NCBI GenBank assembly: GCA_009602735.1
Contig: WELA01003381.1
Coordinates: forward strand, 1-47,172
DNA length: 47,172 bases
Origin: Mesotaenium endlicherianum
Lineage: Eukaryota
Direction: 5' to 3'
A program made the translations under genes and the position numbers. Under the pieces are notes generated by a model. That model worked only from the letters and a program-made list of their open reading frames with translations, was not told where the DNA came from and did no database searches. This document shows, piece by piece, positions 581 through 38,989 of the stretch; positions within the stretch are counted from its first letter, which is position 1; every line of letters starts with the position of its first letter.

Positions 581-2103
581 CGTCGCGACTGCTATCCACT
601 TGACGGTGCCGCACGCGCAGCGCAAGTCACGGTCGCCCAGGTACGGGAAGTCAGCATTGACTCACAGACCAGAGGACCGAGTCAGCGGTCATGTTGAAGT
701 CGTTGTCACTGTCAAAGTGGTCACGACACGTCACACCCACACCCAAAACGGGATGGGGATGTGGACCGAGTGGGCAGCCGAAAGGCTAGGGGCATGGAAC
801 CAGCAATGAGCCAGCCTAGCGAGTGCCAAGAAAGGTACTGATCAATCGGCTATTCAAGCCAAGTACAGCGGGGACGTTGCAAAGGGCGTTGAGTGCCGCC
901 TTGGCTAGGCCCTCAGGTGACTGGTCACGGCCTGAGCGTTCATCCTAAATGTTGCCAGCCAGCCACATAGGCGTGATTGTCAGGTGGAAGGCTAAGTGGT
1001 CACGCGCAACAATCCTAATGCATGCATGCATGTTGAATGACAACTTCTAAGCTGTGTGAGAGCTGCTGGGTAAGGACGGCATGCAAGCTAAGCGCTGTGA
1101 CTAAGCACTGGTATTCTCGAAAGAGGACAGTGTGTGGTGCTTGTGAAAGGCACGAGTCCTGCCATAAGCTGCCTTATCCTTGCTCGCATTGTTGTCAAAG
1201 GAAGCTGAAGAAGCAGAAGGAGTGCAAAGAAGAAGGAGTTCCCAAGGCCATAGAAGGGCCGAGGTGCCACGCTTCTACCGACGCTAAAAGATTTCTTCTT
1301 AAGTGTATCATAGAAAGGTTAGGCCTCAGGAGTTCCCAAGAGAGGATCTCGCTGGTGGAAAGTAGAGAGCTGCAAAATAGAATCTGTTAGGAGATTAGCG
1401 CAGATTGAGGTCAAATGCCGCAAGCGTGCGAGGGTCACTTAAAATGGTGAGTGCTGTGTTAGTCTCCAAGTTCTCAGAAGTCTCCATTGTCGAATTGCTA
1501 ATAGCAAGAGTAGTATTAACAAGTAAAGCTCTCAGTGAAGAACTGAGTGAGCCCAGCCAAGCACTGAAGAACTGTTAAGGCGCGGTGTTGAGCGAAGAGC
1601 TCAGACCAGGCCAGCATAGATGTGCAGTTCAGAGTTTTGTAAGCTGTGACTCGTGGAAGTTAAGCGAAAGTCTTGAAGGGCGATTTTCTCTGAACTTGAC
1701 ATTGCCTGTTAAGCTGCTTAGACGTGATTTCTGCAAACTACAAACTTGTTCATTCTGTAAACCCTCAACTTGGGCGAAAGCCTGTGTGGAAGTAAGACGC
1801 TTCTGTCCTTGTAAGGGAAATTGAAGATAAGCTATCTTTTCGAAAATTTCTTGCTAAGTGTTGAATGAGGAACTGGTTGAACATGGGAAGCACTGAGTGT
1901 GGGATGCCTCACCGCATGATGCAAGTGCAAGAAGACCAGGAATGGGTCAAACCCCAACCAGTCTGTCACTGACACACGTGCAAGGGACGATCAACCCGGT
2001 CGATGCCCACGTGCAGCGACGCACCGACACGTCAACCAAGTCGAAGGCACACGTGCTGAGAAGCCACGCACGCGCCAGGGGTCCGTCGCTGTTAGGCACG
2101 ACA
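581..2103 (+). repeat. Isolated ~1.5 kb unit of LTR family L2 (segments B+A of the DNMT-Gypsy LTR)
   Basis: Reverse-complement homolog of 18284-20600 and 20603-20947. Termini (C/T)GTCGCG...CACGACA. Flanks TCGA/TCAA are a possible 4-bp TSD. Sits in TA-rich DNA. Confidence 0.8.
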
Positions 2104-10029: not shown

Positions 10030-10385
10030 AATCGCAAAAAGTCCACAGATTTTTGTAAAATCCGAACTCCCCTACCTTGGGTTTTACCAAATAAAACCCT
10101 CATATGTGCAACGCGATACAAAGTCCACATACAATCTCAAATCTTGAGTGTAACACGTGGGCGGGTGACTGACACCTTTGATCACAAAAGTCAACCAAGG
10201 GTAGTCCACAGATTTTTGTGAAAACCAAACTTCTTGACCTTGGGATGTACATGTAAATCCCATGCGTCTGCAAAAATCGACCAAACATGTGAAAGGAGGA
10301 CTCACAAAGTCCCCTAATCCATGAAATGTTGACTAGGGGAATGCCACAGATTTTCGTAAAATTTGGGTTTCCCTATGGTGGAATT
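10030..10385. repeat. Three degenerate ~150-bp direct repeats upstream of the transposase (possible subterminal repeats)
   Basis: CCACAGATTTT(T/C)GT(A/G)AAA cores at about 10043, 10206 and 10344. Confidence 0.55.
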
Positions 10386-14608: not shown

Positions 14609-15790
14609 CTAGAATACATGCTTAGTGTAGGAAGAAAACATTAAATGAAATGTACAATATGTACGTATGCAGCTCACCTGATTAGCTGGAGTCTTTCTTC
14701 TGTTGGCAACTACCTCGCGCGCTCTCTTCATAAGCTCTTTTGATGACAAGTGCTTGCCTTCTCTTACCAAAGCTTGCATTGCTTGAGCATGCTCCTTCTC
14801 TTGTTGCGCAATCAACCTGTCTTCCTCTTCTCTATGTTGAAGCACTTGCCTCACTTCATCTGCAACCTTAGCTATTGCCTCTCTCATAATTTGTATAGCA
14901 GCTTGTTTAGCTAGCTTAGAGGTAGTAGGAGGTTGAGGTGCAAAAGTAGCATGAGAATCTGCTTTTCTTTTAGCAGGTGTGCGCAGATCCTGTGATCTTT
15001 GCATTCTCAACTCACGAGCTGCTAAATCAGCAACTTCTTGCAACTCACAGGCTCTCTTGTAGTTCTCCCTCTCTCTCTCAATCCTCTCTTGTTCCTTCTG
15101 TAGCAAGTTAGCTTTTGCAATTTGTGCTACCTCTATTATGGCATCCATAATTTCAAGCCCATGTGCTTGCATCCTAAGAGGGTAATCTGCAAGTTTATAG
15201 TGTATATGGGTGCTAGTATCAACATGATGATGTGCCTTCCAAACAAGTCTGTCATTACAGTGGTCAGGGGCCATCACAACATGCCCCCCCCTGTTTAAGA
15301 CTGAAAATGAAAACTTTAAAGTGAAAGTTTTCTCTCCAGACTTGTTCATCCTCCATTTCATAAAAAGGGGGGACAATAACTACCACCTCTCCTGATTTTG
15401 GGAGGTAAATTTGGCTGCCCCATAGCCCAAATCAGCATTCACAGATTGAAAGCAAAGAAGAGCATCTAAATCCTCTATAGTCCAACACACTCTTCGAATA
15501 CTTTGAGACACCATGGGCTCGGTTTTGGTAATATAGTGGGACACTTCTTTGCCTACATGTGCAAAAAAAGTCTCAAACAAGTTCTTAGGCACGTTCACAT
15601 CACTAATGCAAACACTTGCTTGAGGAGTAGAGTCTATCCTCTTATAGACACGTCTTCTATAGTTAACAAGCCAGCCCATAGGGTCCACTTCTACAGCCCG
15701 CATGAAAGACTTGTTGCACTTCTGACAGTTGGAAAGTCCCACACCTCTTGATGCACCACAGTTGCTGCAGTAATTGGGAAATGACGCCAT
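14609..15790 (-). pseudogene. Unknown protein (~390 codons, one in-frame stop): N-terminal C4 zinc ribbon, globular middle, coiled-coil C-terminus; convergent partner of the transposase
   Basis: ORFs 15380-15790 and 14609-15376 are in frame across a single TAG. CSNCG...SNCQKC near the start. E/Q/R/A-rich helical C-terminal half. Confidence 0.65.
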
Positions 15791-16462
15791 GCTATAGAGG
15801 GCGGTCTTCCCGACCTGGTTCTAATCGTCCTAGCCCCACCCCAAAAAAGAATGAAGGTAAGAGGTGAATAAGTAGTAATATAGTACTAAAGGTGTATTAC
15901 TATTGCTCTCCAGCTCGATCTTAGGTAAGTAGGAACTTATCGTTGATGTAATAATGAATCCTCAAATATGCTCCCAACCCTAAAGACTGCCCCCCAATCT
16001 GCCTCCAAGGCAAAAGTTAAGTAAATATGATTTTTTCCCTTCTTATGGGGCTTATGTTGATACTCACAATTGACTGTGTTTCCCAGGCTGCTCGTACCCC
16101 TCCTCACAAAATTATCTCTAAATATCTAAAAACGAATTTGTCCAAAAATCTATGGGGCAATTATGATCCAAAGCCGTTTCTGGTTCTTTCAACGCAAAAA
16201 ACAAGCATTAAGTGGCAAACGCGACTTTTCGGCCAAGTCTGTTCGTCGTCAGGGGTCCTATTAACAGACGCGCACGTGCACGGAATGAATATTGAAACAT
16301 TTTTTTTTTTGAAATGGTTTAAATCAAATAAAGCGGAACGAAGCGACTTGGCTCTATCTACTTAATTTATATATCCTCCTATTATTTGAATTTTGCAAAT
16401 ACGGCGAAATACGCCGCGTTATACGCCGCCAAAGGACCAATACGTGTGTATTTCATAACTAG

Positions 16463-17195
16463 GCATACAGTGACCTTTTGTCATGGAGTACTTGTGGCCA
16501 ATTGATTCATTTAAAGTCTCAAAAATTTTGGAAGAAAAAAAGGCAAAACACTCAAGGACCATCAAACTTTGGCTTCTCCTCTTTCCGTCTCACCCATCTC
16601 TCAATATGATTTTGGAGCACCAATCTTTGATGAAAGATCAACAATAGCCTTGTAGGCAGATAACATGTCTTTCCATTTGAAATTACATTGATCCGGTGTT
16701 CTAGCGATCCCATAAAGACCCATTAATTCAAAACTTGCTAGCCACTTCTCAACTGCTAATTGGTGAACCGATTTCCTCTTGGTAGAGAACCCCCCTACCC
16801 CCCACGAATTTACCTTTTGCTAAGGGTTTCATACCGGCTGCACTCTTCTTGCCCTTAGTTCGCTCTCTCATTTTCATACCTGCCCTTGCACAAGCTTCTA
16901 CAAGACAAAGTATGGCTTCCTCCAACCATAGCTCTTCCTTGGTCGGAGGAGACGGTGCCACTAGTGGTGCGACGGGAAGAGCAACTAATGGAGCAGTTGA
17001 AGGACCTTGTCCTCCAATGCCGACATCAGAATCTGATAAACCCACAAAGAGCAGGACTTGTGCCTCTTCACTAGGATGCGCCGAGTTTCAGAGGGCTCCT
17101 ACATTAACCTCTTGGACCACAACGGGTTGCATATCTTGCATCTCGGCCTGACCTTATTCTATATCTAGGGGAGCTGAGCGTGAAGAAGAAGCCAT
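16463..17195 (-). pseudogene. Trihelix-type Myb/SANT-like DNA-binding protein pseudogene
   Basis: ELWLEEAILCLVEA..., then after a frameshift EKWLASFELMGLYGIARTPDQCNFKWKDMLSAYKAIVDLSSKIGAPKSY*EMGETER. Fits the trihelix pattern R..QC..KW..L...YK.I.D....SYW.M...ER. Confidence 0.75.
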
Positions 17196-17480
17196 TTGGG
17201 TGCCGGAAGTGAAAAGTGGAAGCTGGGTAAGCGAGAATGGTGAAATGAGGCTTGCTCTCGCTACATTAATGCAAATTGGGATAAGGGTCGTTTTATTCAT
17301 TCATGAGTAATTCGTGGATTGGAGGATTGGCGCGAGTTTGCAAACACTTAACCAAAGTTCGGGCGAAAGTTGGCACATGCAGGCAAGTGTTTGAAAATGG
17401 CTACAAAGTACGCTAAGCAATACTTTACAACGAGTTGGAGAAGTCGTTTTTGACTGGTACGTCAGGTACTTCACACGACC

Positions 17481-17981
17481 TGTAGTGAAACAGATAGATA
17501 AAGTACTTAGTAAAATAGAATACTTTATCTAGTCAAAACAAGGATCTTTGAACACAAGTGGTAGCTTCTTGAAAGGGAGATGGCTTTTTCAAAGTTGATA
17601 TATTTCTGGAACTTGGCAAGTACAAGAGTGATTTTGGAATCCCTTTCTATGTTCTAGCTCTTGTTTATATACTTGCTACATAAGTTATTTCTAGTAAGGT
17701 GCATATTGATGTGTTGGCACCCAACACATCCAAAACTTGCCACCTCTTTCTAGAATAATGTAAACATGTCATTTTGACCTAAAAATGGCACATTTGACTT
17801 TTGCCACATGGAGTTCTTCTAAGGCCTTCCTCTAACTTTGAAAATGCCTTAGAAGGTTCAAAGGATATGAACCAAGTCACTAGAGTATCTATTCACACTT
17901 GAATACACACAATACTACTCAAAATGTATTTAAAAGCATTGAAGTAAAGCAAACTTCTATAATACAATTAAAATCACCACA
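17481..17981 (-). repeat. Solo LTR, family L3 (~500 bp)
   Basis: TGTAGTG...CACCACA termini; 5-bp TSD CGACC/CGATC; reverse complement of 46691-47172. Confidence 0.85.
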
Positions 17982-18245
17982 CGATCAATGACTCCGAAAT
18001 AGAAAGCGAGCAGGTCTTTGTCGATTCTTGAACACTCAATTGACATCTCAAGGCCAAATCGCGTTTTTACCTTTTCTCTTCACTTTTCGTCAGAATTTAA
18101 TTTTAGACGTCAAATAGTTGAATAAAAAAAAGGCTCGCCAAAGTGCACTATAGACGACGAATGTGGACCATTTTTTGAACTACAGGGTATCGCTAGGCAC
18201 ACGCGGGTACAGTACAATAGAATAGAATCCCTCAATTTGGCCCAG

Positions 18246-20947
18246 TGTTAAGGATGCGAATAGATGGGGGAAGCGAGAAGATTGCCTAACAGCGTCAAAC
18301 CCCTGCCACGTGCGTGGCTTCTCAGCACGTGTGCCTTCAACCTGGTCGACGTGTCAGCGGTCCTTCTCGCGTGCGGGGATTCCCTGGTCGTTTGGTCAGT
18401 GCGTTGTTGCACGTGGGAAATTGACTGGGTTGATCGACCTTTGCACGTGTGTCGATGGCAGGCTAGCTGGGGGTTGACCCATTCCTAGTCTTCCTGCACT
18501 TGCATCATGCGATGAAGCATCCCACACTCAGTGCTTCCCATGCTCAACCAGTTCCTCATTCCACACTACCAACTCTTAGTAGAAATTTTAAAAAAGTTAG
18601 CTTATCCTCAGTTTCCCTTACAAGGACAGAAGCGTCTTACTTCCACACAGGCTTTCGCCCAAGTTGGGGGTTACAGAATGAACAAGTTTGTAGTTTGCAA
18701 AAATCATGTCTAAGCAGCTTAACAGGCAATGCCACATTCAGAGGCAATCGCCCTTCAAGGCTTTCGCTTTACTTTCACAAAGTCACAGCTTACAAAACTC
18801 TGAAACTGCACATTTATGCTGGCCTGGTCTGAGCTCTTCGCTCAACACCGCGCCTTAACAGTTCTTCACTGCTTGGCTGGGCTCACTCAATTCTTCACTG
18901 AGAGCTTTACTTGTTAATACTACTCTTGCTATCAGCAATTCAACAATTGAGACTTCTGAGAACTTGGAAACTAACACAGCACTCACCATTTTAAGTGACT
19001 TTCGCAGGCTTGTGGTGTTTGACCTGAATCTGTGCTAATCTCCTAACAGATTCTATTTTGCAGCTCTCTACTTTCTACCAGCGAGATCCCATCTTGGAAA
19101 CTCCTGAGGTTTAACCTTTCTATGATACACTGAGAAGAAATCTTCCAGCGGCGCCAGAAGCATGGCGTCTCGCCTCTTCTGTGGCCTTGGGAACTCCTTC
19201 TTCTTTGCGCTCCTTCTTCTCCTTTCCTTCTGTACCTGTGCTCCTTCAGCTTCCTTGACAATGATGCGAGCAAGAATGAGGCAGCTTCAGGCAGGACTCG
19301 TGCCTTTCGCAGGCACCACACATTATCCTCTCTTGAGAATGCCTGTGCTTAGTTTCAGCGCCTAGCTTGCAAGCCGTCCTTACCTAGTAGCCCTCAAACA
19401 GCTTTAGAAGTTGTCACTCAGCATGCATGCACGCCTTGTGACTGTCATGCGTGACTGCTTAGCCTTTCAGCTGGCAATCACGCCTATGTGGCTGGCGGCT
19501 GGTAGCGTTTGAGATGAACGCTCAAGCCGTGGCTAGTCACTTGAGGGTCTTGGCCGAGGTGGCACACAATGCCTCTGCAACATCCCTGCTGTACTTGGCT
19601 TAGATGGCCGATTGATCAGTACCTTACTTGGCACTTGTTGGGCTGGCTTATTGCTGGTTCCAGGCCCCCAGCCTTTCGGCTGACTACTCCGTCCAAATCT
19701 CCATCCATCCCTGGGTGTGGGGTTTGACGTGTCGTGACCACTTTGAAGGTGATAATGTAATGAATCAGTATATTGGTAGATATAATATTCATTTAAATAT
19801 AATAGTTAACTAAGTTGAGCAGGCTGAACTTAGTTAGTAATGAGCCTGCTGGACTTTACATAATTACCAGTTTAAAGACTCAGCCGAGAGCAGCAGGCTG
19901 AAGTCTACTAGGTCAGCTTGCTGACACATTCTTTGCCAGCCTGCTGCCTTCCGTACTCGGTAGCAACGAACTGCCTAGATATGCATCTAGGTGTGGTGTG
20001 CTAGAGGAATGGCCAGATGACATCCTTAGGATGGATGGCGATTCGGGATGATGGGAGATGGCGGTGGATTTGGTTAACCGAGGTCCTACCAACGTGGTTA
20101 ACTCCCGGGTAGGCGGTGCCATTGCACTGGCCGTTGAATAGTAAACTCATTCCATGTACATATGCTAGGTATTGCCCTCGACTTTGGCATTCAAAAACGA
20201 GGCCAACTCTCTCGTACAGCTTACTGAGAGGGATCTGAATCCAAGGCGAGAAGCCATTGATATGCACTGTCTCCTAGCCTTGCTTATGTGCGAGTTTACT
20301 GATTGTATTATTGATGCTAGTTTACTTCCATTTGACTTATGAGTATTGTCCACTGCTAGTGTGTTGTCTTTGCTGTTTAATCAATTAACAAAAAATACCA
20401 TACGGATTACTTGCTGATATAAGGATCTTCATTAATTGCCTATTTGGTAAGTCGATTCATTTCAGATAACGAATTTGACATAATCGCTGACTGAGATAAC
20501 TCAGTCCTTTGGTCGATGAGTCAATGCTGACTTTCCGTACCTGGGCGGCCGTGACTTGCGCTGCGCGTGCGGCACCGTCAAGTGGATAGCAGTCGCAACA
20601 GCTGTCGTGCCTAACAGCGTCGGACCCTTGGCACATGCGTGGCTTCTCAGCACGTGTGCCTTCAACCTGGTCGACGTGTCGGCGGTCCTTCTCGCGTGCG
20701 GGGATTCCCTGGTCGTTTGGTCGGTGCGTTGCTGCACGTGGGGAATGGACTGGGTTGATTGACATTTGCACGTGTGTTGGTGGCAGGCTAGCTGGGAGTT
20801 GACCCATTCCTAGTCTTCCTGCACTTGCATCATGCGGTGAAGCAACCTACACTCAGTGCTTCCCATGCTCAACTAGTTCCTCATTCCACACTAACAACAC
20901 TCAGTAGAAATTATTGAAAAGTTAGCTTATCCTCGATTTCCCTTACA
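18246..20947 (-). repeat. 3' LTR (family L2) of DNMT-Gypsy 1, with an internal ~340-bp direct repeat and a nested solo LTR
   Basis: Minus strand starts TGTAAGG right after the PPT and ends CCTTAACA. 18284-18622 repeats 20608-20947. Confidence 0.7.
19756..20464 (+). repeat. Solo LTR, family L1, nested in the L2 LTR
   Basis: TGTAATGAATC...GATTCATTTCA with a perfect 5-bp TSD GATAA; L2 sequence is continuous across it. Confidence 0.95.
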
Positions 20948-20959
20948 CCCCTCCCTTTC
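20948..20959 (-). promoter_or_regulatory. Polypurine tract of DNMT-Gypsy 1
   Basis: GAAAGGGAGGGG immediately before the LTR TG. Confidence 0.8.
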
Positions 20960-21029
20960 AGCTGAGGCGCCCCTGCCTTGCCGCTGAAAGCTTCTATCTC
21001 CTAGCTCTGCGGCTGGGAGTTTTAGGAAG

Positions 21030-21158
21030 GGAGTCAGGACATTCCCACCGTCCTGCCATAATCTCTTCTTCACCAATGCAGAAGGTTTGTCAACGGGCAC
21101 TACACTTATCGCAAGTTACCATTGCTTCTTGATCATCTAGCACTATGCAGTAGGCACA
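21030..21158 (-). pseudogene. PHD finger at the integrase C-terminus
   Basis: CAYC..DDQEAMVTCDKCSAR*QTFCIGEEEIMAGRWECPDS: C4HC3 spacing with the W-x-C-x2 motif; W to stop, H to Q and last C to S decay. Confidence 0.8.
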
Positions 21159-21159
21159 A

Positions 21160-24000
21160 GGCGTAGCTGGCACCAATTCCTTAGGCACAACCTTAATCGT
21201 AGGATTCATATTTGGCAAATGGCACAGCGAGCAGTTGTGCACCTGATCTCTCATGGTCTTACGATCAGAACCTTCCATTTCCAACACACCATTGTCGAAC
21301 GCATGTTTCACGTGTAAGATCACTGCACCTGAACTGGTGTCGATGGTGGTCTTGGTCTGGCGCTTGCGGTAGACAAAGTCTCCTTCCTAGATCTGCGTCA
21401 TTTGCAGGCGGTAGGTCCCATCTCGCGTCCTGCGTAACGCTGCGTGTCTCTTTTCTGCGCATTTCTTAGAATGTCGAGGGCAGCAGGCATCATGCGCTCA
21501 AATAACGCCTTGCGGCGTACCATAACCTTTAGCAGTTCATCAGGGTTGTCCAGGTCTTTCACCTGCTCAATCTCCTACTTGATGCAGCTGGGCACAACTG
21601 GACTTTTGCCAAACAGAATCTGATAAGGCGAGTAATTTGCCAAAGCAGCTTGCTTGCTAAATCTGTAACCCATAACCAGCCATGGCAAGGCCAGATCCCA
21701 ATCACGCTTATCATGCTCAAGGAAAAATTTGCGCAAAGCAGACTTAATGGTTTACACCATCCGTTCTGCTAGACCATCTGCTTGTGGGTGGTCTCTAGAC
21801 GTAGTGCGATGGTCAATGAAGCATCTATCCAAGAGTTTCTGAAAAGATCCTTGGAACTCAGACCCTTGGTCTGTCAGCACTTCTGCTGGAGCTCCATGAC
21901 GTATAATCACACCGTTGACGAACGCTTCCGCGGTCCCCAAGCTCTCCTTAGCAGTTAGAGGCACAAACTCTATTCACTTAGAGAAATGCTCAATCATGAC
22001 CATAATGTACTTGTTACCTCGCTTGGACAGCGGTAGCTTACCTGCGAGATCGCAGCTCTACCGGTAGCCTAGGCCCATGATTGGCAGAGGTTGCAGGTGT
22101 GGATGTTGCAGTGTAAAACCAGCCTTGACGCGATCACAGCTTTGGCAGGCCTTGATCACATCCTCACACTGCTGCTTCATGCCCCTCCACCAGTAAGACA
22201 GCTCCAGAAGATTGTACGTCTTCTTGACACCATAGTGTCCAGTGTTCTTGTGCATTTCCTGCACCAGAGCTCGCCTTTTGGTGGGTTTTGGCACAAACTT
22301 CTCCTGACCAGTTTCTTCAATTTTGAAGAGGTTATTGCATTTCGAGCATAATCTTTTAGCTTGATGGCTCACCTGGTCCTTCTCTTTCACAGATAATCCC
22401 TCCATGTGGACTCTCGTCTTCAGCCAGTGCATAGTGGCTTGATCTTTCCAGATCTCTGTATTGAACAGGGGTAGAGGCTCAGCTTCACCTGACGCTACCA
22501 TTCTAGCCATTTTGGCCAAGCAGGCTGCCAACTCTGCTGGGCTGCTCGGATCTTCGTCTTCTCGAGCTCCTGTTCTGTTGTTTGAGGATGGGTCCGGATT
22601 CCTGCTGAGTCCATTGGCGTTGTTGTTGAGTACACCTGCTCGATGCATCACCATCATTTGGTACTCCTGGAGCTTGAGAGCCCAGCAAGCCAATTTACTA
22701 GTGAGGTCTCCATTCTTCATCAACCAGAGTAACGGCGAGTGATCTGTGATCAGCGTGAAGGGTCTCCCCCATAGAGTCTCTCTAAAATGTGCGACAGCCC
22801 AAACCACTGCCAGCAGCTCTCCTTTGTAGGACAAGTAGTTGCTCTCTGCTCGATTGTTAGAGCGCGAGGCATAGGCAATGACGTACTCCTCTCTAGGACT
22901 TGCGGCCTAAGTGACTACTGTGCCGATTCCCACACGACTCCAGTTAGTGTGTAGATTAAACGGCTTGGAGTAGTCAGGCGTTCGCAAGACTGGGGCCGTT
23001 ACCAGCCGCTTCTTGAGCTTGTTCATGGCCTTCTCCTGGGCTTCCGTCCACACAAAAAGTACATCCTTTTTTGAGAGTTCTGTCAAGGGTTTAGCAATTT
23101 TGCTATAGTCCTTCACAATTTTACGATAGTATCCGCTTAGCCCTAACAGAGCTTTCAGCTTAGACACATTTGTAGGTGCAGTATCTTATAAATGGCCTCA
23201 ATCTTTACAGCCTGAGGGGACATAGCATTGTTCCCAATCTCATGTCCCAAGTAAGGCACATGTGCCTCAAAGAATCTGCACTTTCCAGGATGCAACGTCA
23301 TCTGGAGTTTCTCCAGGTGCTGGAACACTTGTTCCAAGTGCTCGAGGTGCTCCTCAATGGACTTGCTCAACAACACTACGTCATCAACGTATGGTTTTGC
23401 AAAATCCAGCCCCTCCAGCACTTTATCAATAGTCCTCTGAAAGATGGCTGGGGCATTTTTCAGCCCAAACGACATTACCGTCCATTGCCAAAGTTCCCTT
23501 CGAGCCCAGAAAGCGGTCTTACCTCGATCTTCGGTTTTCACAGGGATCTGGTTGAAGCCTTGGCGTAGATTGATGATGCTGAACACCTTCCCGATGGTGG
23601 CAATCGCAAAGATCCGCTCTGGTGTAAGCATCACGTAACTGTCCGGCTCCGTGTGGAGATTCAGTCGCCTGTAGTCTCCACACATACGAGTGGTTGTATA
23701 ATTGCTAGCCTCGTCCTTCTTGGCAACTACTATCGTGGGAGCTTCATGTACTGAGGTTGATTTCTCAATCATGCCGAGCTTGTGCAACTCCTGGCAAGTT
23801 TTCTCCACACAGTCCCATTCAGTCTGACTGAGCTTATGCGGCCCAAGTCTGACTGGGTTAACAATAGTTAGTGTGATCTCACACACATTGGCAGTGGTTC
23901 TACCAATCTCCTCCTTGGTGAAAGCAAATACCTTGCGGTGCTTCTTCAGCAGCCTTTCTACTTGAGCTCTCTGTTGGGCTGAGACCGTTTTTCCAGTGGT
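21160..24000 (-). pseudogene. Gypsy reverse transcriptase, RNase H and integrase (disrupted)
   Basis: RMCGDYRRLN, FGLKNAP, PYVDD (RT). LHTNWS, LITDHSPL (RH). H-x4-H...CQSC, TDQGSEF, HPQADGLAERM (IN). Confidence 0.95.
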
Positions 24001-26329
24001 GAAAACCTCAGTTTCCGGCTGCTTTTCCCCAACACAGGCATCCAGTAGTTGCTACTCTTTGGGTTCTGGTGGGGGCTTTTTGCCCTCATCCTGACCTTCA
24101 GGCTTTTTTGCCCGATTGTTAGGCGGTGGAGTGGCAGGCTTCGCAGCTTGCTCCTTCGCTTAGTTAGGCTCGACGGCCTGCTTCTTAGGCCTTTTACCTT
24201 TTCCGATGGATTGTCGCCTCTCCTGTCGAGTGGAGTATGTCAGACGCCTCCGAATGGGCTGCCTCAAGAACCTTTGTTAATCTGCTGTAGTCCAACTGGT
24301 CCCCGTTCCTCCCTCTTCACGTGGTGGGGGCGGGTTCGACAAAGGCCACTTTGTTGGATCTGCTCTGGGGTCGATTGTCCAACCCCACTTGCGCTCAATG
24401 GTGGCAATGCGCGCAACGGTTGTGCCAAACTCCTCCCTGGCTGGTGGTGTAACCGTCCATGCTTGTATCAAAGTCTGCGGTCTTTGAGCCGCAACTAGTT
24501 GTGCGTATACAACATTCTCTGCTGTCAAGCGGATTATGGTACTTTTCAGCTTTACCAGTTCCCTTTCAGAAACTGCAGGTGTCCTAGGAGTTGAACTATC
24601 CTTCTCCAACGTTCCAGTGGATGAAGGACGCACCATGGGAATGCGAATTCCCAATGCCATGGCTTTGCAAATCAAACCATCCTCTCCCACTCTTTGCAAA
24701 ATCTCCAGGATAGGTTGTGGAGGAGGAGCCATGGTTCCTTTTGGAACCCCTTCTCTCTGAGCTGCTCCCTTATACTTGAGATAACGCATCAGCATCCGCC
24801 TGAAAGGTGCATTCCCTTCCCGAGCCACCTTTCTTGCTCTACTTGCACGACCGTAAGGATCACCTTGTGTTGGTTCCACCTTAGCGGTGCAAGCAGCCAC
24901 TTCTTGCGGCTGTTGTAGCTGATGTGGGGTAGCTTCTGGTGCTGGAAAACTGGCGGTTGGAGTGCTGGATGTAGGCAACCTCAAATTGTTGTATAGATCC
25001 GTCGGGCTGGGCCCCTCCATTATCAATTGGTCGGCCACCCAGTCATCCGTCTTGAGCTCTTGTAGCTCCAACAGGTCTAGCTCTGGGGTAGGGAAACGTG
25101 GAATTTCTTCCCAAATCTCCTCTTCATTGGTGACTGACGGCAGGTCGAACTCAGGAAGGTCGGGCATCTCTGCCTTATCTTCAATTGAATTCTCCACTTC
25201 AGGTGGTGGTGGCTCTCCATCATTATCTGTGTTGAGCTTCGCCAGGTTGACGATGGCTGATTGCAAAGCGCTTGCCGCTTTAGCCACTTCCTCTTCCTTG
25301 TGCCGTCGAGCGTCTGCTTCCAGCAGCTGCTCCATGATCTGCCTTGTATTGAATTCGGCTGTCTGACTCGCTGAACCCTGCTATTGTCCCTCAGCCTTCG
25401 GCTCTGGGCTCATCAAAGAAGGTGTTGTGGACAATTGCTTGCCCGACTCCTCCTTGCGTTCTTTGAATATCACTTCGAGGCATATGGTCTTTGCAAACCC
25501 TCCAGAATCTCCTGAATTTTGGCTACTCTCTTTAGCTCAATCACCAATATTGCACTGGCGTTCTCTGAGTGATGCTCTGTAGGTATCATGGGACTATTCA
25601 GGGGTCCTATTCAGATACTCTTTAGACGCCCATCTTGGCCCTTCACCAATGCTGCGCTGGCGCTCTTGCACTGATGCTTGGTTTAGATAGTATTCAAAGT
25701 CTTCAAGCGTTGGCTCAGGGGTCTTCGTCTCAGACTCCTCTGACATGTCTTGTAACGGCGCTTGCTCTGATGAAGACGATAGACACTTTTGGTTAGCTTC
25801 CCAGCTACTTGAGCTTTCCTGCCAATATTCTCCGCGCCCTGCTGCTCTTGGGCTGAGGTTGGTATCATACCCTGATCTGGCATCTTCTGGAGTCTCCTCA
25901 CGCCTTGATGTCGCGGCTCCGGAAGGTGGTCTTCCAAATATTTGACCGTGAGTGGCGTTTCTCACAGATGATGGGGTATCCTGCGTATCGTCTTCTGCGC
26001 TTGGCAGCGGCGTCGTCTGCTCAGACGTCTGGTCCCCCATGGGTGTATTCTCTCTTTCCAGAAGTGCTTGTAACCCAGCGGTCCGGTTATCGATCCGGTC
26101 CAACAAATCCTGGCATCTCATCAGTTTAGCTACCCCAGCTTCCCTGAATGCTCTGTCTCTGGCAGCTTCCGCTGCGTCTCTTTGCACACCGTATTCTTCT
26201 TGTTGCTGATGTGCCATCCTAATAGCCCTCTGATCAGATGTTGGCACCACATGGACCCCGATTGTCATTGGTCTTAGCCTTGGCATAGGCTTGTCGGTAA
26301 AGGTCAACTGTTGCCACGTCATGATTGTC

Positions 26330-27318
26330 TCCACCAGCCAAGTCATAGAGTGCTGTCCAATCATATTGCCGAAAATCTTCGCAGCTTCATCTGACCCTAC
26401 AACACCGACTATCTGCCGAGCTATGGTGTCGGGTATTCCAAGACACTTTCCCTTCTCCACCGCAGTAGGCTCTCTCCAAACGGCATCTCTTTCATACATG
26501 TCTTTGACCATTCCTGGTCCACCTCCTATGAAGGCTCGGCATCCTGGATACGTTGTGAAGGTAGGCAGTACCACCCTTGGCTGGCCTGGTTTGTTGATGA
26601 CACACTGTGGATAGGAATCCCTCCTGGTCACTGGCCTGATATGTACCGCCAGCGCCTCTTCCACTGTCAATGCCGTCGGTGATCGCCGCGTAAGGTCCTC
26701 CATCTCTCTCAGGACCTCAATAGGCATGCCGTTGGTCCAAAATGTTCTGGCCCTATGGGATAATCCTCCGTGCTTGGCGTCATCGATTAGCACATGATGA
26801 CCCAAGGTGGAGTCGAAAATCAGCTATGGCTCTCCCGGCTTCATCTGCTTGTAATCCATTCTTGGATGCACGTTCTTAATCACAAACACTGGTGGATGAT
26901 AGTGCTGATATTCGCGCAGCATGCTGATGATTTTCACCATCCATCCCCAATGTTGTGCTCGTGGATCATTGAATCCCCTCCTGTTCCCAGCTTGAGAAAA
27001 CGGTTGACAAGGGAATCCAGCAAAGATCCAGACAATCCTGTAGCCATACAGGTCTTCAGGTTTCACATTAATAATGTTGCCTCCAGCGATGCGCTCAACA
27101 TTGGTGTATGCAGACACCAACCCCTGAAAGTGATGCATTTGCTGCATCTGACTCATGACTTCTCTGAATTCTAGAAAAGCGTGGTTATCATTGTCCACAT
27201 ACAGGATTTTGGCCACCTGTATCCCTTGCTGGATCAATGCTATGGTCCCAGACCCAAGTTCGGCGAACAATTCCAACACCACTACTCCCTTTTTACAAAA
27301 AGGATCTCCCATCCTCAC
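26330..27318 (-). pseudogene. C5 cytosine DNA methyltransferase domain within Pol
   Basis: Motif I VLELFAELGSG, IV AGFPCQPFSQAG, VI VIKNV (ENV decayed), VIII HRARTFW, IX REPTAVE..CLG, X IFGNMI. Same reading frame as the upstream protease and downstream RT. Confidence 0.9.
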
Positions 27319-27599
27319 AATGCCTTATGGCAGCAGCTCGGCTCCAGGCATCAGGTTTGCAGCAGAGGTAACTGGGTAGGGTACTGGCAGCAGCTCTTGC
27401 GGCCCGCGCTCCCTGTTACTCACAATTTCTAGTTGCTCCATAATCCAAGGTTGCCATACCAAGGGTGTTGGCATGTGGATGCTCGTATAGCTTTCCTCTT
27501 CGCGCTTCATGATGTTGTCGTAGGATTCTGGGTACCTGTCGTGAACGCAACAGGCTAGCAGCCCGTAGTTTGCTTCTCCTGTGCAAACCATCTTCACAG

Positions 27600-27852
27600 G
27601 ATTTTCTCCTGTCGGCTGCTAATTTGTTGATTGGTAAGTCACCCTCCGCTTCCGCAGATCAATGACCATACCCAAGGGAATCAGCGCTTCTGTTCCCAAG
27701 AGAACATGATAGTTCTCTGCCTCCGTCATTGCGCACTCCATGAGTAGTGACGCCTCTTCAGGTTTCCCTAAATTTACTGTGATTATCACAGGCTTGCGGA
27801 TAATCCCACAAGACTTTGAGACTTGCCCTGAGGCAGTTTTTAATTGGAAAGG
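27600..27852 (-). pseudogene. C-terminal half of retropepsin protease of DNMT-Gypsy 1
   Basis: PFQLKTASGQVSKSCGII...ENYHVLLGTEALIPLGMVIDL; in frame with the DNMT. Confidence 0.7.
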
Positions 27853-28605
27853 TGAAAAGGGTAGAGTGCCCTAGTGGAAGCGTAGTAACTCACAAGGAAA
27901 GGAACTAGTTGCAATCATCCTAAAAAGTGCAGCGGCATATCACTAAGAAAGCTTAGGAAAATTACTCAACATCTTGAGTAGCAAGAAACTGCTCACAAAT
28001 GATGTAGGATGGAAGGCCTTGTCATTACAAACCCGTAGAAATTTACAGAAGTGAAAACTAATAAGAAATGAAGTAGTTATGCATATTTATAGTTTTCTAC
28101 GACGGCCGCTCGCCCCTAGGCGGGAGGGCCGCTTGGCAACGGATTTTCCTAAGTGTTTGTCAAATTGTCCCTTCCAGAATATTCGTGGAAAGCCAGATCG
28201 GTCTCATCTGACGTGTCGGGCCGATTTGACGTCCACATGCATGCATCAAAATATCATAGAATATACTAACTTAGACGCGCTAGGCTAATCCGAAACTTCT
28301 AGGTAAATCGACCTAGTCGACACTCCGCGTCAGCCAAACTCACGTAAAGGTTCGAATTAACTCTAACGGGCCAGATTGCTCGACGCTGTTGGTCAATCCG
28401 ACGGTCGCGCTCACCGCGAATTAAAGACAGTCGTCAATCGACCTCAAAACTAATTAAACTTTGGAAATCCATAACTCTCTCAATACTTAACCAAATTTGA
28501 TGAACTTTATATCAAAATGGCCAAACAAATGCACTCTACACTTCTATGCAACCAAAACATACTTTTAAGGAAATCAAAAGTGCACTTTGTAAACCTATGC
28601 TTACA
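27853..28605 (-). repeat. 3' LTR (family L4) of the minus-strand chromovirus
   Basis: Begins TGTAAGC just after the PPT and ends CTTTTCA where the protease frame of the host element resumes. Confidence 0.7.
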
Positions 28606-31600
28606 TCACCCCCCTCCTCAAGATGCAAAGTCCTCGACGCATTCTGCAAATAACGTCTCAACTTACTCTTACAATGAGTCAAGTTGGCTTCTGGCTCCCA
28701 AGTGTTGTCGTCCGCATGGTAGCCCTCCCACTTGACCAAATACTCTTGAACAAGTCGTTGACCTCGCTTGACTCGTCGATCGCCGACAATCGCCTCCACT
28801 TCATACTCCAATACATCATCAATCTCGACCGGTGGTGGCGGTGTAGGTAGTCGTCCTGGATGTCCTTCATTCGGGTCAACGTATGGCCGCAGACAACTGA
28901 CATGGAACACATCATGGATACGCCAGCCTGAAGAAAGCTCCAACTTGTAGGTCACTGGATTCACTTGCTTGAGCACCACAAAGGGACCTGTAAACCGTGC
29001 CCGTAGTTTCCTTTTGCCCGTGAAAGGTAGGTTCTCTGTTGACTAGAGTACTTTGTCACCCACATGGAATGTCACTTCCCTCCTGTGCTTGTTAGCATGC
29101 TTGACATGCTCCTCCTGTGCCTTCCAAATACACGTCTTTGCCATATCCCAAGTGTTGGCCATTTGCTCCATAAACGCTTGTGTAGTAGGAACCTGCGTCT
29201 CCTTGGCCTTCTCTAACAAAATGTTCCCTGGATAATATACTTCTCTCCCATAAACCATGGTGAATGGTGACTGCTTGGTCGATCCCTGCATGCTGTCGTT
29301 GTAGGCAAACTCCAACCCTGGCAGCTTCTTGTCCCACTCTGAAGGGTCTTCCATAGTGAAACTCCTGAGCACCTCTTGCAGAGTTCTGTTGAGCCTCTCA
29401 CTCTGCCCGTCTGTCTGAGGATGATAGGAAGTGCTCATACTCAGCTTGGTCCCCATGAAAGTAAACAATGACCACCAAAAGTTGCTAGTAAACCTTGGAT
29501 CCCGGACTTAAACAATCACCTTTGACAACCCATGTAGCCTGGAAATATGATCAAAGAATAGCCGAGCCACATCAGCAGCCGTAAAAGTCTCCTTCATGGG
29601 AATGAAGTGAGCCATCTTGCTGAGCCAATCAGACACAACCCAAATTGCATCGTGCCCTTGACCACTCACTGGTAAGGATGTGATGAAGTCCATAGCAATC
29701 TGCTCCCAAGGATACTATGGAGTAGGCAGGGGCTGCAATGTACCTCCCTTCTTTTGATTTGGTGTCTTGTTTCTCTGGCACGCATTGCAACTTCTGATCC
29801 ACTCCTCAATGTCTTTGTCCATATTTTTTCAATACTACTCCCGCTTCAGCACACTTGCCGTCTTCTCGCTTCCAAAGTGTCCAGCATATAGGTTATCATG
29901 ATACTTCGCAAGTAGTAAGTCTCGTAGCTCCTTGATGTCAGGTACCACCACTCTCTTGGAATCACCTAAGTACCATATGCCGTCTTTCTTCTGCATACTC
30001 GAGTTGAACTCAACTGCTTCACCATCAGCAAACTCTGGGTCCTCCTCATAACCTCTCTGAAGCTTCTCCTTGAAGTCCATACTCTCCTTGATGACTGAGA
30101 CAGCTGCAAGGTCACACCTCCTGGCTAAAGCGTCTGCAGGGTTGATCTTCCCAGGTAAGTACTCAATCTTGTGGTCAAACTGTTGCAGAAACTCCATCCA
30201 CCTTGCCTGTCTTGGTGTCAATGTTGGCTGCGTCATAAACTTCTCCAAGCTCTTGTGGTCGGTCTTGATGAACACCTTCAGGCCGTCCACATAACATCGC
30301 CAAATCCTCAAAGCCTGGATAATAGCCAACATCTCCTGCTCGTGTGCTGCATAATTCTGCTCAGCAGGACTCAACTTCCTGCTCTCATATGCCACACGTT
30401 GTAATCCCTTGCCTTGGTCCTGGAGAAGAATGGCTCCCACTGCAAAATTTGATGCGTCCGTGATGATGGTGAAAGGAAGCGCTGGACTTGCAATTGCCAA
30501 TACAGGTGCCTGTGTCAACAGCTCCTTAATCTTCTCGAAAGCTTGTTGTTCCTTGTCACCCCATAGCCACTTCTCCTGCTTCTTCAACATGTCCGTGAGC
30601 GGTGCACACACCTTGGCAAATCCTTCAATGAAACGTCGATAATGATTTGCCATGCCGAGGAAGCTCCTGAGTTGATAAATATCAACAGGTACCGGCCAAT
30701 CTCTGACTGCTTGCACCTTCTTCTGCTCCACCTTGACTCCTTTAGCTCCCACTATGTGCCCATGAGACAGAATTCGCACTTGCTCATCTTCCCATATAGC
30801 TTCTGATCTCTCAAGACCTCCAACACCTCCCTGAGATGCTCCACATGCTCTTCCAAGGTCTTCGAATAGATTAGGATGTCGTCCAAAAATACCACCACAA
30901 ACTGGTCCTAGTAGGGTCTGAAGATACTATTCATGAGTCCCATGAATGTAGCAGGTGCATTAGTCAATCCGAAACACATGACTGTAAACTCGAATAAACC
31001 ATAGCGAGTCCTGAAAGCAGTCTTCTGAACATCTCCTTTCACAATCCATACCTGGTGATAGCCACTCCTCAAATCGATCTTCAAGAAACACTTCGCCCTG
31101 ACAAGCCCGTCAATTAACTCGTCCACTCGTGGAAGTGGGTACCTGTTCTTGATGGTGATCTTGTTGAGTGCCCGGTAGTCGACACACATCCTCATAGTCC
31201 CATCCTTCTTCTTCACAAATAAGATTGGTGCTGCAAATGGAGACTCGCTGGGTTGGATGAATCCCTTCTCCAATAACTCTGTCAGCTGCTTTTTCAACTC
31301 ATCCAACTTCGCAAACGATTGACAATAGGCGGGTCTCACTGGTGGCTTGCTCCTCGATTCCAACTCGATCTTGTGCTCCATAGCTCTCTGTGGAGGGTAA
31401 TCCTGCAGGTAGCTCCTTAGGAAACACGCACTTGAACTCCCCCAACAGCGCCTTAATTTGGGCAGGCATCTCAGCAGGCTTCTTCTCTTGAGCAGTTGGC
31501 TCTGCTCCTTCTGAGCAAGGGGATCAGACACCACTACTTGCTCCTCCGGCAATGTACATTCGCCCAGGCTGTTAAGATTCATGCTTGCTCCATTTAATGA

Positions 31601-32260
31601 CCTGGCCAAGGCCACCGAAACAAGGTACATCTCCTTCACCTGATTCGCCTTGCATAGCTTCTTAACTTGCAGGCTCGACAGAAGACTGTTACTTGTGGTC
31701 GTATCTACCTCCACCTGTTTTGCTGTCTCCATTCAACCATCACGCCCTTGGACCTTCACTTGTCCTGTGCTCTAGTGCACTTGAGGGTTGGCTTTTCTTA
31801 GCCATGGTTGGCCCAATATCACCTCATGGTGACCTAACTCTGCCTGCTCCATAACCTCCTTACTCCGGTGCCCCGCTACTTCCACGTGAATAGCTTCCGT
31901 AGGTGCACCACACTTGAGTCTCTGCCCATTCGCCAAAATTGCCTCCTTAGGCTCATAATTCTTTTGCACAGGGATTCGCCACTTTTTCACTAGCCTCTTG
32001 TGCACAAAGTTTGCACTTGCGCCACTGTCGACCATACACTTCGCCTTGTTGCCGTCGACTACTCCTTCCACAATGATAGGCTTGTCAACATCTCGTCCTT
32101 TGTTTCTCAACAGGCTCCTGGGGATAACCTCCTTGTGAGTTCTTGTCTTCAAGCTAGTAGGCACCCCAGAACGACTTACTGGCGTCCTCCTTTTTCCTGT
32201 TGTTGAGGTTGCTTCGCCTTCACGCGACAGTCTCGAGCCAGGTGCCCAAGCTTGCCACAA
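28536..32260 (-). pseudogene. pol: Pol polyprotein with chromodomain (disrupted)
   Basis: ORF pieces 31772-32260, 30908-31732, 29835-30779, 29508-29693, 29043-29468 and 28536-28979 in PR-RT-RH-IN-CHD order. Confidence 0.95.
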
Positions 32261-32807
32261 TTATAGCAAGGTCCTCTCGGCTTGACATTTTGCTGCATGT
32301 GCTGGTTCTGCACAAGTCCCAACTTCATAGGTACTGGACCTTGTCCACTCGTGCTTGGCGCTTGAGAACCAAACTGTCGATGTCCTCCAGAGTTTCGGCT
32401 GCCCCACTGCCTCCGACCAGCGTCGACCCTTGTTGCCAATGCCATCCTTTCTCCAAGATTGGTAGGGTCCTTGAGCGCCACTTCCTTGGCCACGGTTGGC
32501 TTGAGTCCCCTCTTGAACTTGTCCATCATCTCCGACTCGTGCATAGATGGACATCAAAGCACCAGCTCGTTGAAGCGCAAAACATACTCCTGAACGCTTC
32601 CTCGTTGACGAAGGCGCACCAATAGATCTCGAGCAGTAACCTTGGGTGCAATAGGTTGAAATTGCCTCTTCAAACCTTCAAATAGCTGATCAACAGTAGC
32701 AGGTTCTCCAGACAGCTGCTCCTGTCGCTCATACCAAGCTCCAGCACACTTCTTCAGCAAAGTAATAACAAAGGCGACTTGCCTGTCAGGCCTGAGCGCA
32801 TAATATT
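32176..32807 (-). pseudogene. gag: Gag (5'-truncated by insertion)
   Basis: Retrotrans_gag-like LRQRGSVQEYVLRFNEL, KFKRGLKP, GPVPMKLG, CCHC knuckle. Confidence 0.9.
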
Positions 32808-33383
32808 TGTAATGAATCAGTATATTGGGTGATACAATATTCATTTAAATAATAAAGTTAAATAAGTTCAGCCTGCTGAACTTTAGTTAACATCGAGTCT
32901 GCTGGACTTTATTAAATCATCAGTTTAATGACTCAGCCGGAAGCAGCAGGCTGAAGTCAACTTAGGTCAGCTTGCTGACAAATTCTTTGACAGTCAGCTG
33001 ACTTCCGTAGTCGGTTGCAGCGAACTGCCTAGATATGCATCTAAGTGTGGTGTGCTAGATGAATGGCCAGATGACATCCTTAGGATGGATGGCGATTCGG
33101 GATGATGGGAGATGGCGGTGGATTTGGTTAACCGAGGTCCTACCAACGTGGTTAACTCCCGGGTAGGCGGTGCCATTGCACTGGCCGTTGAACAGTACAC
33201 TCATTCCATGTACATATGCTAGGCATGCTAGTCTACTCGCATTTGACTTACGAGTATTATTCACTGCAAGTGTGTTGTCCTTTGCCGTTTAACCAGTTAA
33301 CGGGAAATACCATAAAGATTACTTGCTGATATAAAGATCTTTATTAATTGTTAATTGCCTATTTGGTAAGTCGATTCATTTCA
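32808..33383 (+). repeat. 5' LTR (L1) with an internal deletion
   Basis: TGTAATG...ATTTCA. Shorter than other L1 copies; deletion lies between ATGCTAG microhomologies near 33220. Confidence 0.9.
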
Positions 33384-33384
33384 G

Positions 33385-33396
33385 TGGTATCGGAGC
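33385..33396 (+). promoter_or_regulatory. Primer binding site, tRNA-iMet type
   Basis: TGGTATCGGAGC one base after the LTR; the plant consensus is TGGTATCAGAGC. Confidence 0.9.
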
Positions 33397-33417
33397 AGTT
33401 ATCACTGTCTTCTTTGT

Positions 33418-34896
33418 ATGGTAAGGACAAGGTCTCAAACTAGCAACTCCCGAGACATGGAGAACCAGGATAACGAGAAGGTCGAAAACCAGGCAGAAAG
33501 CCATGTAGCGGGAACCCGTACCTATTCTGAAGCAGTGGCAGATACTGCAGCTAGAGAGGCTGCAGATGAGGCAGCTGCTATTGCCGCAGTCGCAGCACAG
33601 CAAGCTGAGGAGGAGAGAGCCAGATTAGAAGCTGAACAATTAGCAAAGGCCGTTAAAGATATAGAAAGGAGGGAAAGACAGCCAACTGATGAGCGCACTG
33701 TCGAGGAACTTATGGCATCAAGGGCCAATGTTCTGAACCCACCTTCTGCTGTACAACTCAATGTACCCCTAGGTCAAATACGTGACCGGTTGAATGCGGC
33801 AGGAATTGCTGCTGCAGGAGCGAGAGGGACTGTTGAGGACACTACTCAGCGAGTAGATGCCAATGCTGCTGCTGCATTTGCTAATCTACCACCCCAAAAT
33901 GTAGACTTGGGAGCATTGTTCGTTCAGATGCAGTCGCAAATGGCGACCATGTATCAGTCCCAACAGGAGGACAAAAGAATCATAATGTCTCTACTGCGGG
34001 ACAGAGACCAACTGGGGTCTCAAACCACTAGTGGTGGTGGCCGAGGGCCTAGTAAGCCCAAGCCAAAACCTCCCCAGGAATATGATCTTGAGGGAAACAA
34101 AAAATATTTCCTGATCAAGTTTCTCGCGGATGTTGAGCAGTGGCTGGAGAACTACCCAGAGCTACAGGATTACGAGAAGGTCAGGCACACTGGTGCTCTA
34201 CGGAAAGGCAGTGCAGCAGACTGGTGGTTGTATTGGAAAGGAGAGCGTAAGGCTTAGCAACTCAATGACCCTACTTGGGTAGAGTTTGTCGAGAAGTTGC
34301 ATGAGAAGTTTGATGTCATCAACCAGCAGGAGAAAGCTATCTATGCGATGATCTCCCTGACACTGAAGCAGACCACTTCAGTTGCTGAGTTTGCTCAAAA
34401 GTTCCAAGATAACATGATGAAGCAGCCCGATTTGCCAGAACGATATAGGATAGCATACTTCAGGTAAGGCTTGAAATCCGAGGTCTCTGGTCATTTTGCT
34501 GAAAAAAAGTATGAGAAACTGGCTGACTTGATCCAGGATGCGGATGCCTGGGATCAGCAGCAGTTCAATCACAAGCGCCAGAGTAATGCTTTGGTGTCTA
34601 AGGTTGTCAAAATGCCCCACGGTTCCTACAATGCAACTGAAGGAGACCAGGCTGAGGATGATCAGGGTGATGGATATGAGTATGAATATAACGCTATACA
34701 GTCTAGAGGTAGAGGTGGTTCCTCTCGAGGCGGCTATGGAAGAGGTGGTGGTAGGACTAAGCCGAGACCAGCCTCAGCAAAATTTGTTTGCTTCCATTGT
34801 CAGCAGTTGGGCCACTACAGAGAACAGTGTCCAGTCAAGCACCTTCCTAAGGTCAAGAGAAAAGACCAGCCTTTAAAAGACAGCAAAAGTCAGTAA
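33418..34896 (+). pseudogene. gag: Gag with two in-frame stops
   Basis: Single frame across stops at 34255 and 34465; AADWW capsid-like region, RGG stretch, CFHCQQLGHYREQC knuckle. Confidence 0.9.
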
Positions 34897-38665: not shown

Positions 38666-38989
38666 CTGTCCCTTCAGTAGACATGGGAAGGTGACAGGAG
38701 GTCCTGTCTCCATATAAGTTGGAGGGGGATGTGACAGTTAGTGACAGTTGTGACAGGCAGCCCACCTTTAAATTTAAGTTGGAGGGAGTGGTAGTCTCTG
38801 ATCACCATATTACCCACTCAACCTGCGCTCACACTCACTTGCTCTCTAACTCAAATTTCCCTTATATTCACTCACACCAGGTATTCCACACTAGGAACTC
38901 TCCCGATCGCGTTCCTCTTCATCAAGGGCACTCAGTAGCGGCAAAATATCATGACTTCACTAACTGCATTGTGTTTATGATTGAGCAGG

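Follow-up and report, generated by a model that had tools for sequence, protein, structure and literature searches.

The closest described relative of the element studied here is KnitGypsy-Dnmt3 of the alga Klebsormidium nitens, a Gypsy retrotransposon with an unpermuted Dnmt3-related domain in its Pol open reading frame (ORF) and, according to the legend of Fig. 4c, DIRS-like split repeats (PMC5890265). The domain is said to have been acquired in the K. nitens lineage, and the text and text supplements of that paper name no PHD finger, although the Fig. 4c drawing may differ. This 2018 paper is the only one on KnitGypsy that we found; PMC12344493, in the part covered, merely restates its Gypsy-DNMT3 result. 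Other elements carry chromatin modules of other kinds. EpiLTRs of Cymbomonas and Euglena combine a cytosine methyltransferase and a histone reader in one long terminal repeat (LTR) element, with DAM, a chromodomain and a DNMT4-sister enzyme, and are called distinct from the streptophyte Gypsy-DNMT3 elements (bioRxiv 10.64898/2026.05.21.726589). Gypsy-7a_cRei of Chlamydomonas is a green-algal Gypsy whose PHD was proposed to limit harmful insertions; no DNA methyltransferase (DNMT) is listed for it, and the legend places the PHD between RNase H and integrase (PMC9940879). In chromoviruses and CopiaMBD, Pol includes a fused chromatin reader, and a bias of integration by this reader has been either proposed or shown (PMC6673714); 823 fusions of transposable elements with chromatin domains have been catalogued (bioRxiv 10.1101/2021.11.30.470311). 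In the parts of these sources covered here, Gypsy-DNMT3 elements (PMC5890265), green-algal Gypsy PHDs (PMC9940879, PMC6673714) and methylase-plus-reader EpiLTRs (bioRxiv 10.64898/2026.05.21.726589) are already published. Here we analyse a 47,172-nt contig of Mesotaenium endlicherianum (WELA01003381.1, assembly GCA_009602735.1; the window). It holds a decayed minus-strand Gypsy copy whose family combines a DNMT3-like methyltransferase with a PHD finger.

The window copy has the Pol order of Ty3/Gypsy elements, with protease, reverse transcriptase (RT), RNase H and integrase domains of Gypsy type (Table 1), and the best solved relative of its family is Ty3. Like KnitGypsy-Dnmt3, it carries an unpermuted, Dnmt3-related domain inside Pol and in the frame of the RT. 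A preliminary description of this DNA, made from sequence alone, had called for a comparison with published Gypsy-DNMT architectures; the protease–DNMT order is that of the K. nitens protein GAQ93235.1. The terminal repeats B1-A-B2 are the 3′ half of a split-direct-repeat end, a match that draws on the 3′ end and a solo unit, the 5′ end of the element being missing. The copy differs from the EpiLTRs in its DNMT3-like enzyme and PHD reader, and a Pfam scan found neither DAM nor a chromodomain in it. From chromoviruses and CopiaMBD it differs in having another reader and a DNMT, and it resembles the chromoviruses in the place of that reader, at the integrase C-terminus.

The copy is 5′-truncated and decayed. 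One frame runs over 27852–23200 through the C-terminal half of the protease, the DNMT, a linker and the RT, with nine stops and no frameshift. A frame break near 23190 separates the RT from RNase H–integrase, which lies in a second frame with five stops. A further break near 21430 leads into a third frame with two stops, which holds the integrase tail and the PHD. In total, 16 stops are scattered over all parts of the 2301 codons. The preliminary description had reported a single frame, broken only by stops, from the protease through DNMT and linker to the RT, and had recognised that DNMT capture itself is not new, correctly citing PMC5890265. Its ORF starts (27597, 27318, 26805, 25335 and 23886) do lie in one minus-strand frame, but the protease in that frame is only a C-terminal half, and the linker, put at about 700 amino acids (aa), measures 786. 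Programmed read-through of one special stop may occur in such a frame; the stops are evenly scattered and no single one is conspicuous. A chromovirus LTR end and loose read ends at 27853 indicate that the protease was severed at 27852. Its catalytic Asp motif and gag fall outside the window, lost with the 5′ part beyond that point. In intact relatives, a zinc knuckle lies upstream of the protease.

The DNMT scores well above the Pfam cut-off in the DNA_methylase scan that the preliminary description had suggested (Table 1). A profile from 28 DNMT sequences finds DNMT3A first (1e-20), followed by DNMT3B/C, DRM (2e-13) and bacterial enzymes including HhaI (7e-11). A structure model with a predicted local distance difference test score of 87.7 gives DNMT3B/3A as the top Foldseek matches (DNMT3B, E 8.5e-14). 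The window copy retains the catalytic Cys; the motif-VI Glu and one motif-I Gly are gone, and there is one internal stop. The catalytic Cys and motif-VI Glu are both present in all 167 classed relatives, 30 of 30 with the DNMT before the RT and 137 of 137 with it after RNase H. The enzyme family is conserved, and its member in the window copy is dead. Two features set the element apart from KnitGypsy-Dnmt3. Its DNMT is about 30% identical to any relative, and its DNMT–RT linker exceeds the 20–169 aa of 29 relatives 5- to 40-fold. The linker has no known domain in Pfam and no homologue among the proteins compared (best E 0.45). Residues ~1010–1190 of the frame are less low-complexity and may fold.

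The integrase was first described as ending in a PHD finger. This holds for five relatives with an intact protease–DNMT–RT–RNase H–integrase–PHD protein in a single ORF (P0187, P0188, P0236, P0239 and P0339). A PHD out of frame with the integrase in intact copies, which the preliminary description had named as a finding that would speak against it, is therefore not what these relatives have. In the window copy, by contrast, the break near 21430 puts the PHD in another frame than the integrase core. This PHD has six of eight zinc ligands left and one internal stop. The proposed Pfam scan leaves it below the cut-off, but a family hidden Markov model (HMM) recognises it (Table 1). The lesions are private to the window copy: 99% of the summed depth of host contigs differs at the stop and both lost ligands, and the host-contig residues at the three broken codons agree with those conserved in relatives. 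Across the integrase tail and PHD, variation among copies falls in the third codon position at 17 of 23 listed sites (p 8e-5), compared with 6 of 17 private changes of the window copy (Fisher p 0.024); these counts cover 40 of 44 rows, some of which come from RNA reads only. Since the lesions are private and the host copies show this third-position bias, the family appears to retain a PHD under selection. At the frame break itself, position 21431, host contigs vary in length (six and eight contigs, ~30% of depth).

A C4HC3 zinc-ligand pattern fits 141 of the 145 PHDs of relatives (last ligand Cys or His), with Pfam E down to 1e-13. Asp follows the third Cys in 133. The residue two before the His, which we take to be the site of the methyl-lysine cage Trp, is Gly in 132 of the 141 and Trp, as in the wall of H3K4me3 readers of the ING/PHF2 type, in one. 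The closest solved PHDs are those of CHD4, ATXR5, KDM5A/B (PHD1), WSTF and PHF21A/BHC80. BHC80 and the ADD domain are described as reading unmethylated H3K4, with me3 readers relying on a Trp wall (PMC9898751). Because the cage Trp is missing and the nearest solved PHDs include BHC80, the PHD is predicted to read H3K4me0.

We asked how widely the two domains occur together. With the DNMT as query, HMMER found 593 proteins; a word-index search of longer proteins had returned none of 1629 candidates, a failure of sensitivity. A search with RNase H–integrase found 365, and the best 120 were classed. Among these, 78 have DNMT and PHD in one ORF, 15 have the DNMT only and 27 have a PHD with no DNMT seen, in a set limited to 1043–2975 aa, which favours DNMT-bearing ORFs; 25 of the 27 start no more than 139 aa from the RT and are uninformative on the upstream part. 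Six of the 120 have the DNMT before the RT plus a PHD. The union of writer and reader in one Gypsy Pol, as originally proposed, stands at the level of the family; in the window copy both are dead.

Host copies were studied via contigs, with DNA runs from one sample. Summed contig depth, which is not a copy number, is 14,000–21,000 over the DNMT, 8,000–15,000 over the linker and 38,000–68,000 over the RT and integrase core, compared with 42–54 for contigs over unique flank. The family is multicopy in its host. The preliminary description had also named absence of the DNMT from most copies as evidence against it; the depth of host contigs over the DNMT is far greater than for a single copy, and at 80% likeness its bins are deeper than those of the linker, no more than a proxy for selection on the DNMT. 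These data bear on whether the arrangement is an accident of the window copy, in which nested insertions or misassembly brought a DNMT of host or foreign origin and a chance cluster of Cys residues together with a Gypsy pol. Insertions are indeed nested in the window, the copy is interrupted by 16 stops and two frame breaks, and its linker has no relative. However, protease, DNMT, linker and RT share a frame over 4.7 kb, every bin is covered by host contigs far above single-copy depth, and a second, unrelated DNMT–RT Gypsy lies at 41486–44890. Intact relatives that keep the domain order in one ORF refute such an accident, which we regard as highly improbable.

The relatives fall into two domain orders. 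In order 1, the DNMT precedes the RT. This order is found in K. nitens GAQ93235.1, Closterium, Marchantia (Mp_2g26090), the five intact single-ORF relatives and both DNMT Gypsies of the window. In order 2, that of the chlorophytes, the DNMT follows RNase H and precedes integrase; Scenedesmus, Tetrabaena and Haematococcus have this order, together with many further relatives. The nearest named relatives of the window element are from Coleochaete, Marchantia, Closterium and Klebsormidium. The best RNase H–integrase relative with near-full cover is a PHD-bearing Coleochaete scutata transcript (51%), which represents the RT–integrase–PHD part only. This range goes beyond the single lineage to which the KnitGypsy-Dnmt3 acquisition was ascribed. 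P0200 has its PHD between RNase H and integrase like Gypsy-7a_cRei and belongs to the outgroup in the RT tree. REM1, another Chlamydomonas Gypsy, reportedly has its PHD in an antisense ORF of its own.

RT trees unite the DNMT/PHD elements in one clade, apart from the outgroup (Shimodaira–Hasegawa-like approximate likelihood ratio test, SH-aLRT, 97). Order-2 elements form a clade (99) nested among order 1 with weak support (81–87), and the window element stands beside intact DNMT+PHD elements (83–85), outside the clade of the window's two chromoviruses. The DNMT tree divides the two orders (98), with the window element on the side of K. nitens GAQ93235.1. One RT tree is a quick mixture tree with 51 of 104 rows; another kept 35 of 100 order-2 rows, 29 of which were used in the DNMT tree. 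Judged from these sequences, the simplest reading would be a single DNMT capture followed by a domain move. There may instead have been two separate captures, as the trees were built without host DNMT3 outgroups. A clade that contains Closterium has a catalytic DNMT and no PHD (11 rows, SH-aLRT 100), and P0280 and P0284 have a PHD and no DNMT; each domain has been lost independently of the other.

Several order-2 relatives have further modules. A G-patch lies between DNMT and integrase in P0019, P0086, P0243, P0248 and P0264. Behind the PHD of 74 order-2 proteins (P0242, P0243, P0214, P0170 and others) is a tail of ~330 aa. It comprises a small beta-barrel that by eye resembles Tudor/SH3 and a methyltransferase-like domain of Rossmann type. 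The latter has weak matches to PF02086, which is Dam-like (E 3e-4), and to phrog_799, a phage DNA methyltransferase (E 5e-6, 3/3). Among the fold matches listed, only integrase appears for the tail; the tail profile has no solved relative below E 0.08 and matches nothing in the window. The S-adenosylmethionine motif is present in 20 of the 74 and an SPPF/SPWF motif in 14, so many of these domains may be dead. Elements with the tail are possibly a third kind of EpiLTR that lies below Pfam cut-offs.

How might the two domains serve the element? We lean slightly towards the following account. The decayed, 5′-truncated copy in the window belongs to a multicopy Gypsy family of the same kind as KnitGypsy-Dnmt3; in this family, the packaged DNMT would mark the cDNA and the integrase-PHD would steer insertion to H3K4me0 chromatin. 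Packaging of Gag-Pol and its cutting by the protease are established for Gypsy elements, and the same would apply here. The DNMT would be in the particle while cDNA is made and would methylate the new cDNA; it flanks the RT–RNase H block in both orders, which suggests its presence at cDNA synthesis. The PHD at the end of integrase would favour nucleosomes with unmarked H3K4 and so keep insertions out of active (H3K4me3) promoters. It sits at the integrase C-terminus, where chromoviruses have a targeting chromodomain. Protease processing, cDNA as substrate, H3K4me0 reading and avoidance of H3K4me3 promoters are what we infer. Methylation of cDNA by an element's DNMT was proposed earlier, and in yeast the DNMT3s of DIRS retrotransposons act as de novo CG methylases (PMC5890265). 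Insertions of the PHD-bearing Gypsy-7a_cRei are intergenic 2.6-fold above chance (PMC9940879).

The two domains could also act together. The integrase-PHD would then place the DNMT on the target nucleosome, like ADD in DNMT3A/3L, so that site and new copy are methylated together. A DNMT3-like catalytic domain without ADD or PWWP in one polyprotein with an H3K4me0-type PHD fits this idea, as do the 78 of the best 120 relatives that keep both and the position of the DNMT directly ahead of integrase in order 2. It is harder to reconcile with the Closterium-containing clade, with P0280 and P0284, and with the ~1600 aa and probable protease sites between DNMT and PHD in the window element, and we consider it unlikely. 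Given that PHD-less clade and the two relatives without a DNMT, it seems to us a little more probable than its opposite that the DNMT and PHD are separate aids, one for the cDNA mark and one for target choice, and not an ADD-like coupled switch.

A broader version is possible, though on balance we doubt it. A Gypsy clade spread across green plants, from chlorophytes to liverworts, would for a long time have combined a DNMT3-like writer with a PHD of the H3K4me0 type, rebuilding the ADD logic of host DNMT3A/3L on the pre-integration complex so that it inserts and methylates only at unmarked H3K4. The DNMT would have moved from before the RT to after RNase H, and the chlorophyte branch would have gained a Tudor-like barrel and a second, amino-methyltransferase-like domain behind the PHD, a four-module epigenetic toolkit missed by Pfam cut-offs.

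Alternatively, the DNMT may act on RNA or on nuclear DNA of host or element, as a self-limiting or counter-silencing activity, with the PHD serving transcription or stability and not targeting. PMC5890265 raises RNA methylation and host benefit and saw no activity of the K. nitens domain in yeast, and insertion bias can come from post-insertion selection (PMC6673714). Yet the relatives keep all catalytic residues of a DNA C5-methyltransferase, the nearest folds are DNA enzymes and not DNMT2, and the PHD occupies the place of the targeting chromodomains. Such roles strike us as improbable.

Several observations weigh against the account we favour, in which the DNMT marks cDNA and the PHD steers integration. 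The PHD and DNMT are not an obligate pair, given the DNMT-bearing elements of the Closterium type and the two PHD-bearing ones named above, and the length limit on the relatives inflates the share with a DNMT. The K. nitens KnitGypsy DNMT gave no methylation in yeast, a result that its authors call inconclusive (PMC5890265). The window DNMT is on a long branch (1.82) in the DNMT tree. RNA is at trace level: depth over the DNMT reaches at most 0.5 in two runs, and two further runs have 11 reads each from the PHD region. For the PHD, the account also leans on general background, the binding of unmodified H3 by most of the listed look-alikes other than BHC80. CpG depletion is 0.57 in the DNMT-Gypsy and 0.51 in a DNMT-free chromovirus neighbour. 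Self-methylation as a reading of the CpG loss was rejected, the loss being indistinguishable from that of neighbours; with the DNMT-free neighbour equal, the depletion points to host silencing. About 1110 differences separate the copy from host copies; 40 are listed, and the state of the motif-VI Glu in host copies falls outside these. Other host copies are informative on only two of the nine stops in the DNMT–RT frame. The long linker may therefore end in a genuine stop, with DNMT and RT in separate ORFs, and in many relatives RT–integrase–PHD is indeed a separate ORF of constant length. P0007 (gag–protease–DNMT) and P0360 (RT–integrase–PHD) are both on 12,472-nt JGI contigs. In some families, Pol may be split into two ORFs after the DNMT.

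Gypsy-DNMT3 was known from one alga. With scores of intact natural elements, which range from chlorophytes to a liverwort, the family, as far as sequence comparison can tell, widens the known methylase-carrying Gypsy kind into a lineage spread across green plants. In the literature text we found no Gypsy with DNMT3 and PHD, no chlorophyte or liverwort members of Gypsy-DNMT3 and no account of two alternative DNMT positions; a PHD may be shown in the Fig. 4c drawing (PMC5890265) or in the supplements of two preprints, which lie outside this scope. Members of both domain orders, some PHD-bearing and some PHD-less, make a comparative set for asking whether cDNA is pre-methylated and whether sites are chosen by H3K4 state. 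The family is also relevant to how plant-lineage DNMT3 arose, and it is a source of small DNMT3-like enzymes without ADD or PWWP.

Table 1. Parts of the DNMT–PHD Gypsy copy, its terminal repeats and related units in the window
Feature	Position	Strand	Basis
Aspartic protease, C-terminal half only	27655..27852	-	Family HMM positions 44-110 of 112, E 7e-13
DNMT3-like C5 cytosine methyltransferase, unpermuted	26332..27294	-	Pfam PF00145 (DNA_methylase) E 7.7e-12, 45.7 bits, cut-off 22
In-frame linker, 786 aa, largely low-complexity, 6 stops	23974..26331	-	Host contigs cover all bins
Reverse transcriptase, in the frame of the DNMT	23230..23973	-	RVT_1 E 1e-24 (Pfam) and family HMM
Tether and RNase H, past frame break near 23190	22631..23179	-	RT_RNaseH E 3.5e-30 (Pfam)
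Integrase zinc-binding domain and catalytic core	21548..22303	-	Integrase_H2C2 E 4e-16, rve E 1.6e-8
Integrase C-terminal SH3-like domain, past frame break near 21430	21192..21389	-	Family HMM E 7e-21
C-terminal PHD finger, degenerate	21030..21164	-	Pfam E 0.012, 16 bits, under cut-off 24; family HMM E 4.8e-6
Polypurine tract, abuts terminal repeat	20948..20959	-	Sequence
Terminal repeat B1 (TG...CA)	20603..20947	-	92% to B2 over 340 nt
Terminal repeat A, starts TG	18623..20600	-	83% to 703-2098
Unrelated 709-nt solo LTR inside repeat A	19756..20464		5-nt target duplication; one contig skips the insert
Terminal repeat B2	18283..18622	-	Identity to B1
Solo A-B unit of the family of the decayed Gypsy	581..2103	+	83-93% identity; short inverted ends

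At the edge of repeat A, position 20600, 75 contigs depart from the sequence. The solo A-B unit has a likely 4-nt duplication with one mismatch; recombination between two A repeats would be expected to leave such a unit. Although the polypurine tract lies ahead of repeat B, the ends of the element seem to start at repeat A.

Two chromovirus-type Gypsies lie at 27853–32806 (minus strand) and 32807–41485 (plus strand). A chromodomain at 28536–29042 is part of the first and not of the DNMT–PHD Gypsy. The second has an extra 538-aa ORF (38981–40597) ahead of its 3′ LTR, with no Pfam match; its flanks have no target duplication, and two different broken elements are joined there. The second DNMT-before-RT Gypsy (plus strand) has both ends cut, few lesions, a GC content of 63% and an observed/expected CpG ratio of 0.91, and its DNMT keeps the catalytic Cys and the ENV motif. 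At 12215–15820 are convergent ORFs of 235 and 540 aa (plus strand) and 256 and 146 aa (minus strand), with a CpG ratio of 0.26, a strong loss. The three of these ORFs that were scanned have no clear Pfam match; the region is perhaps a decayed DNA transposon or viral insert.

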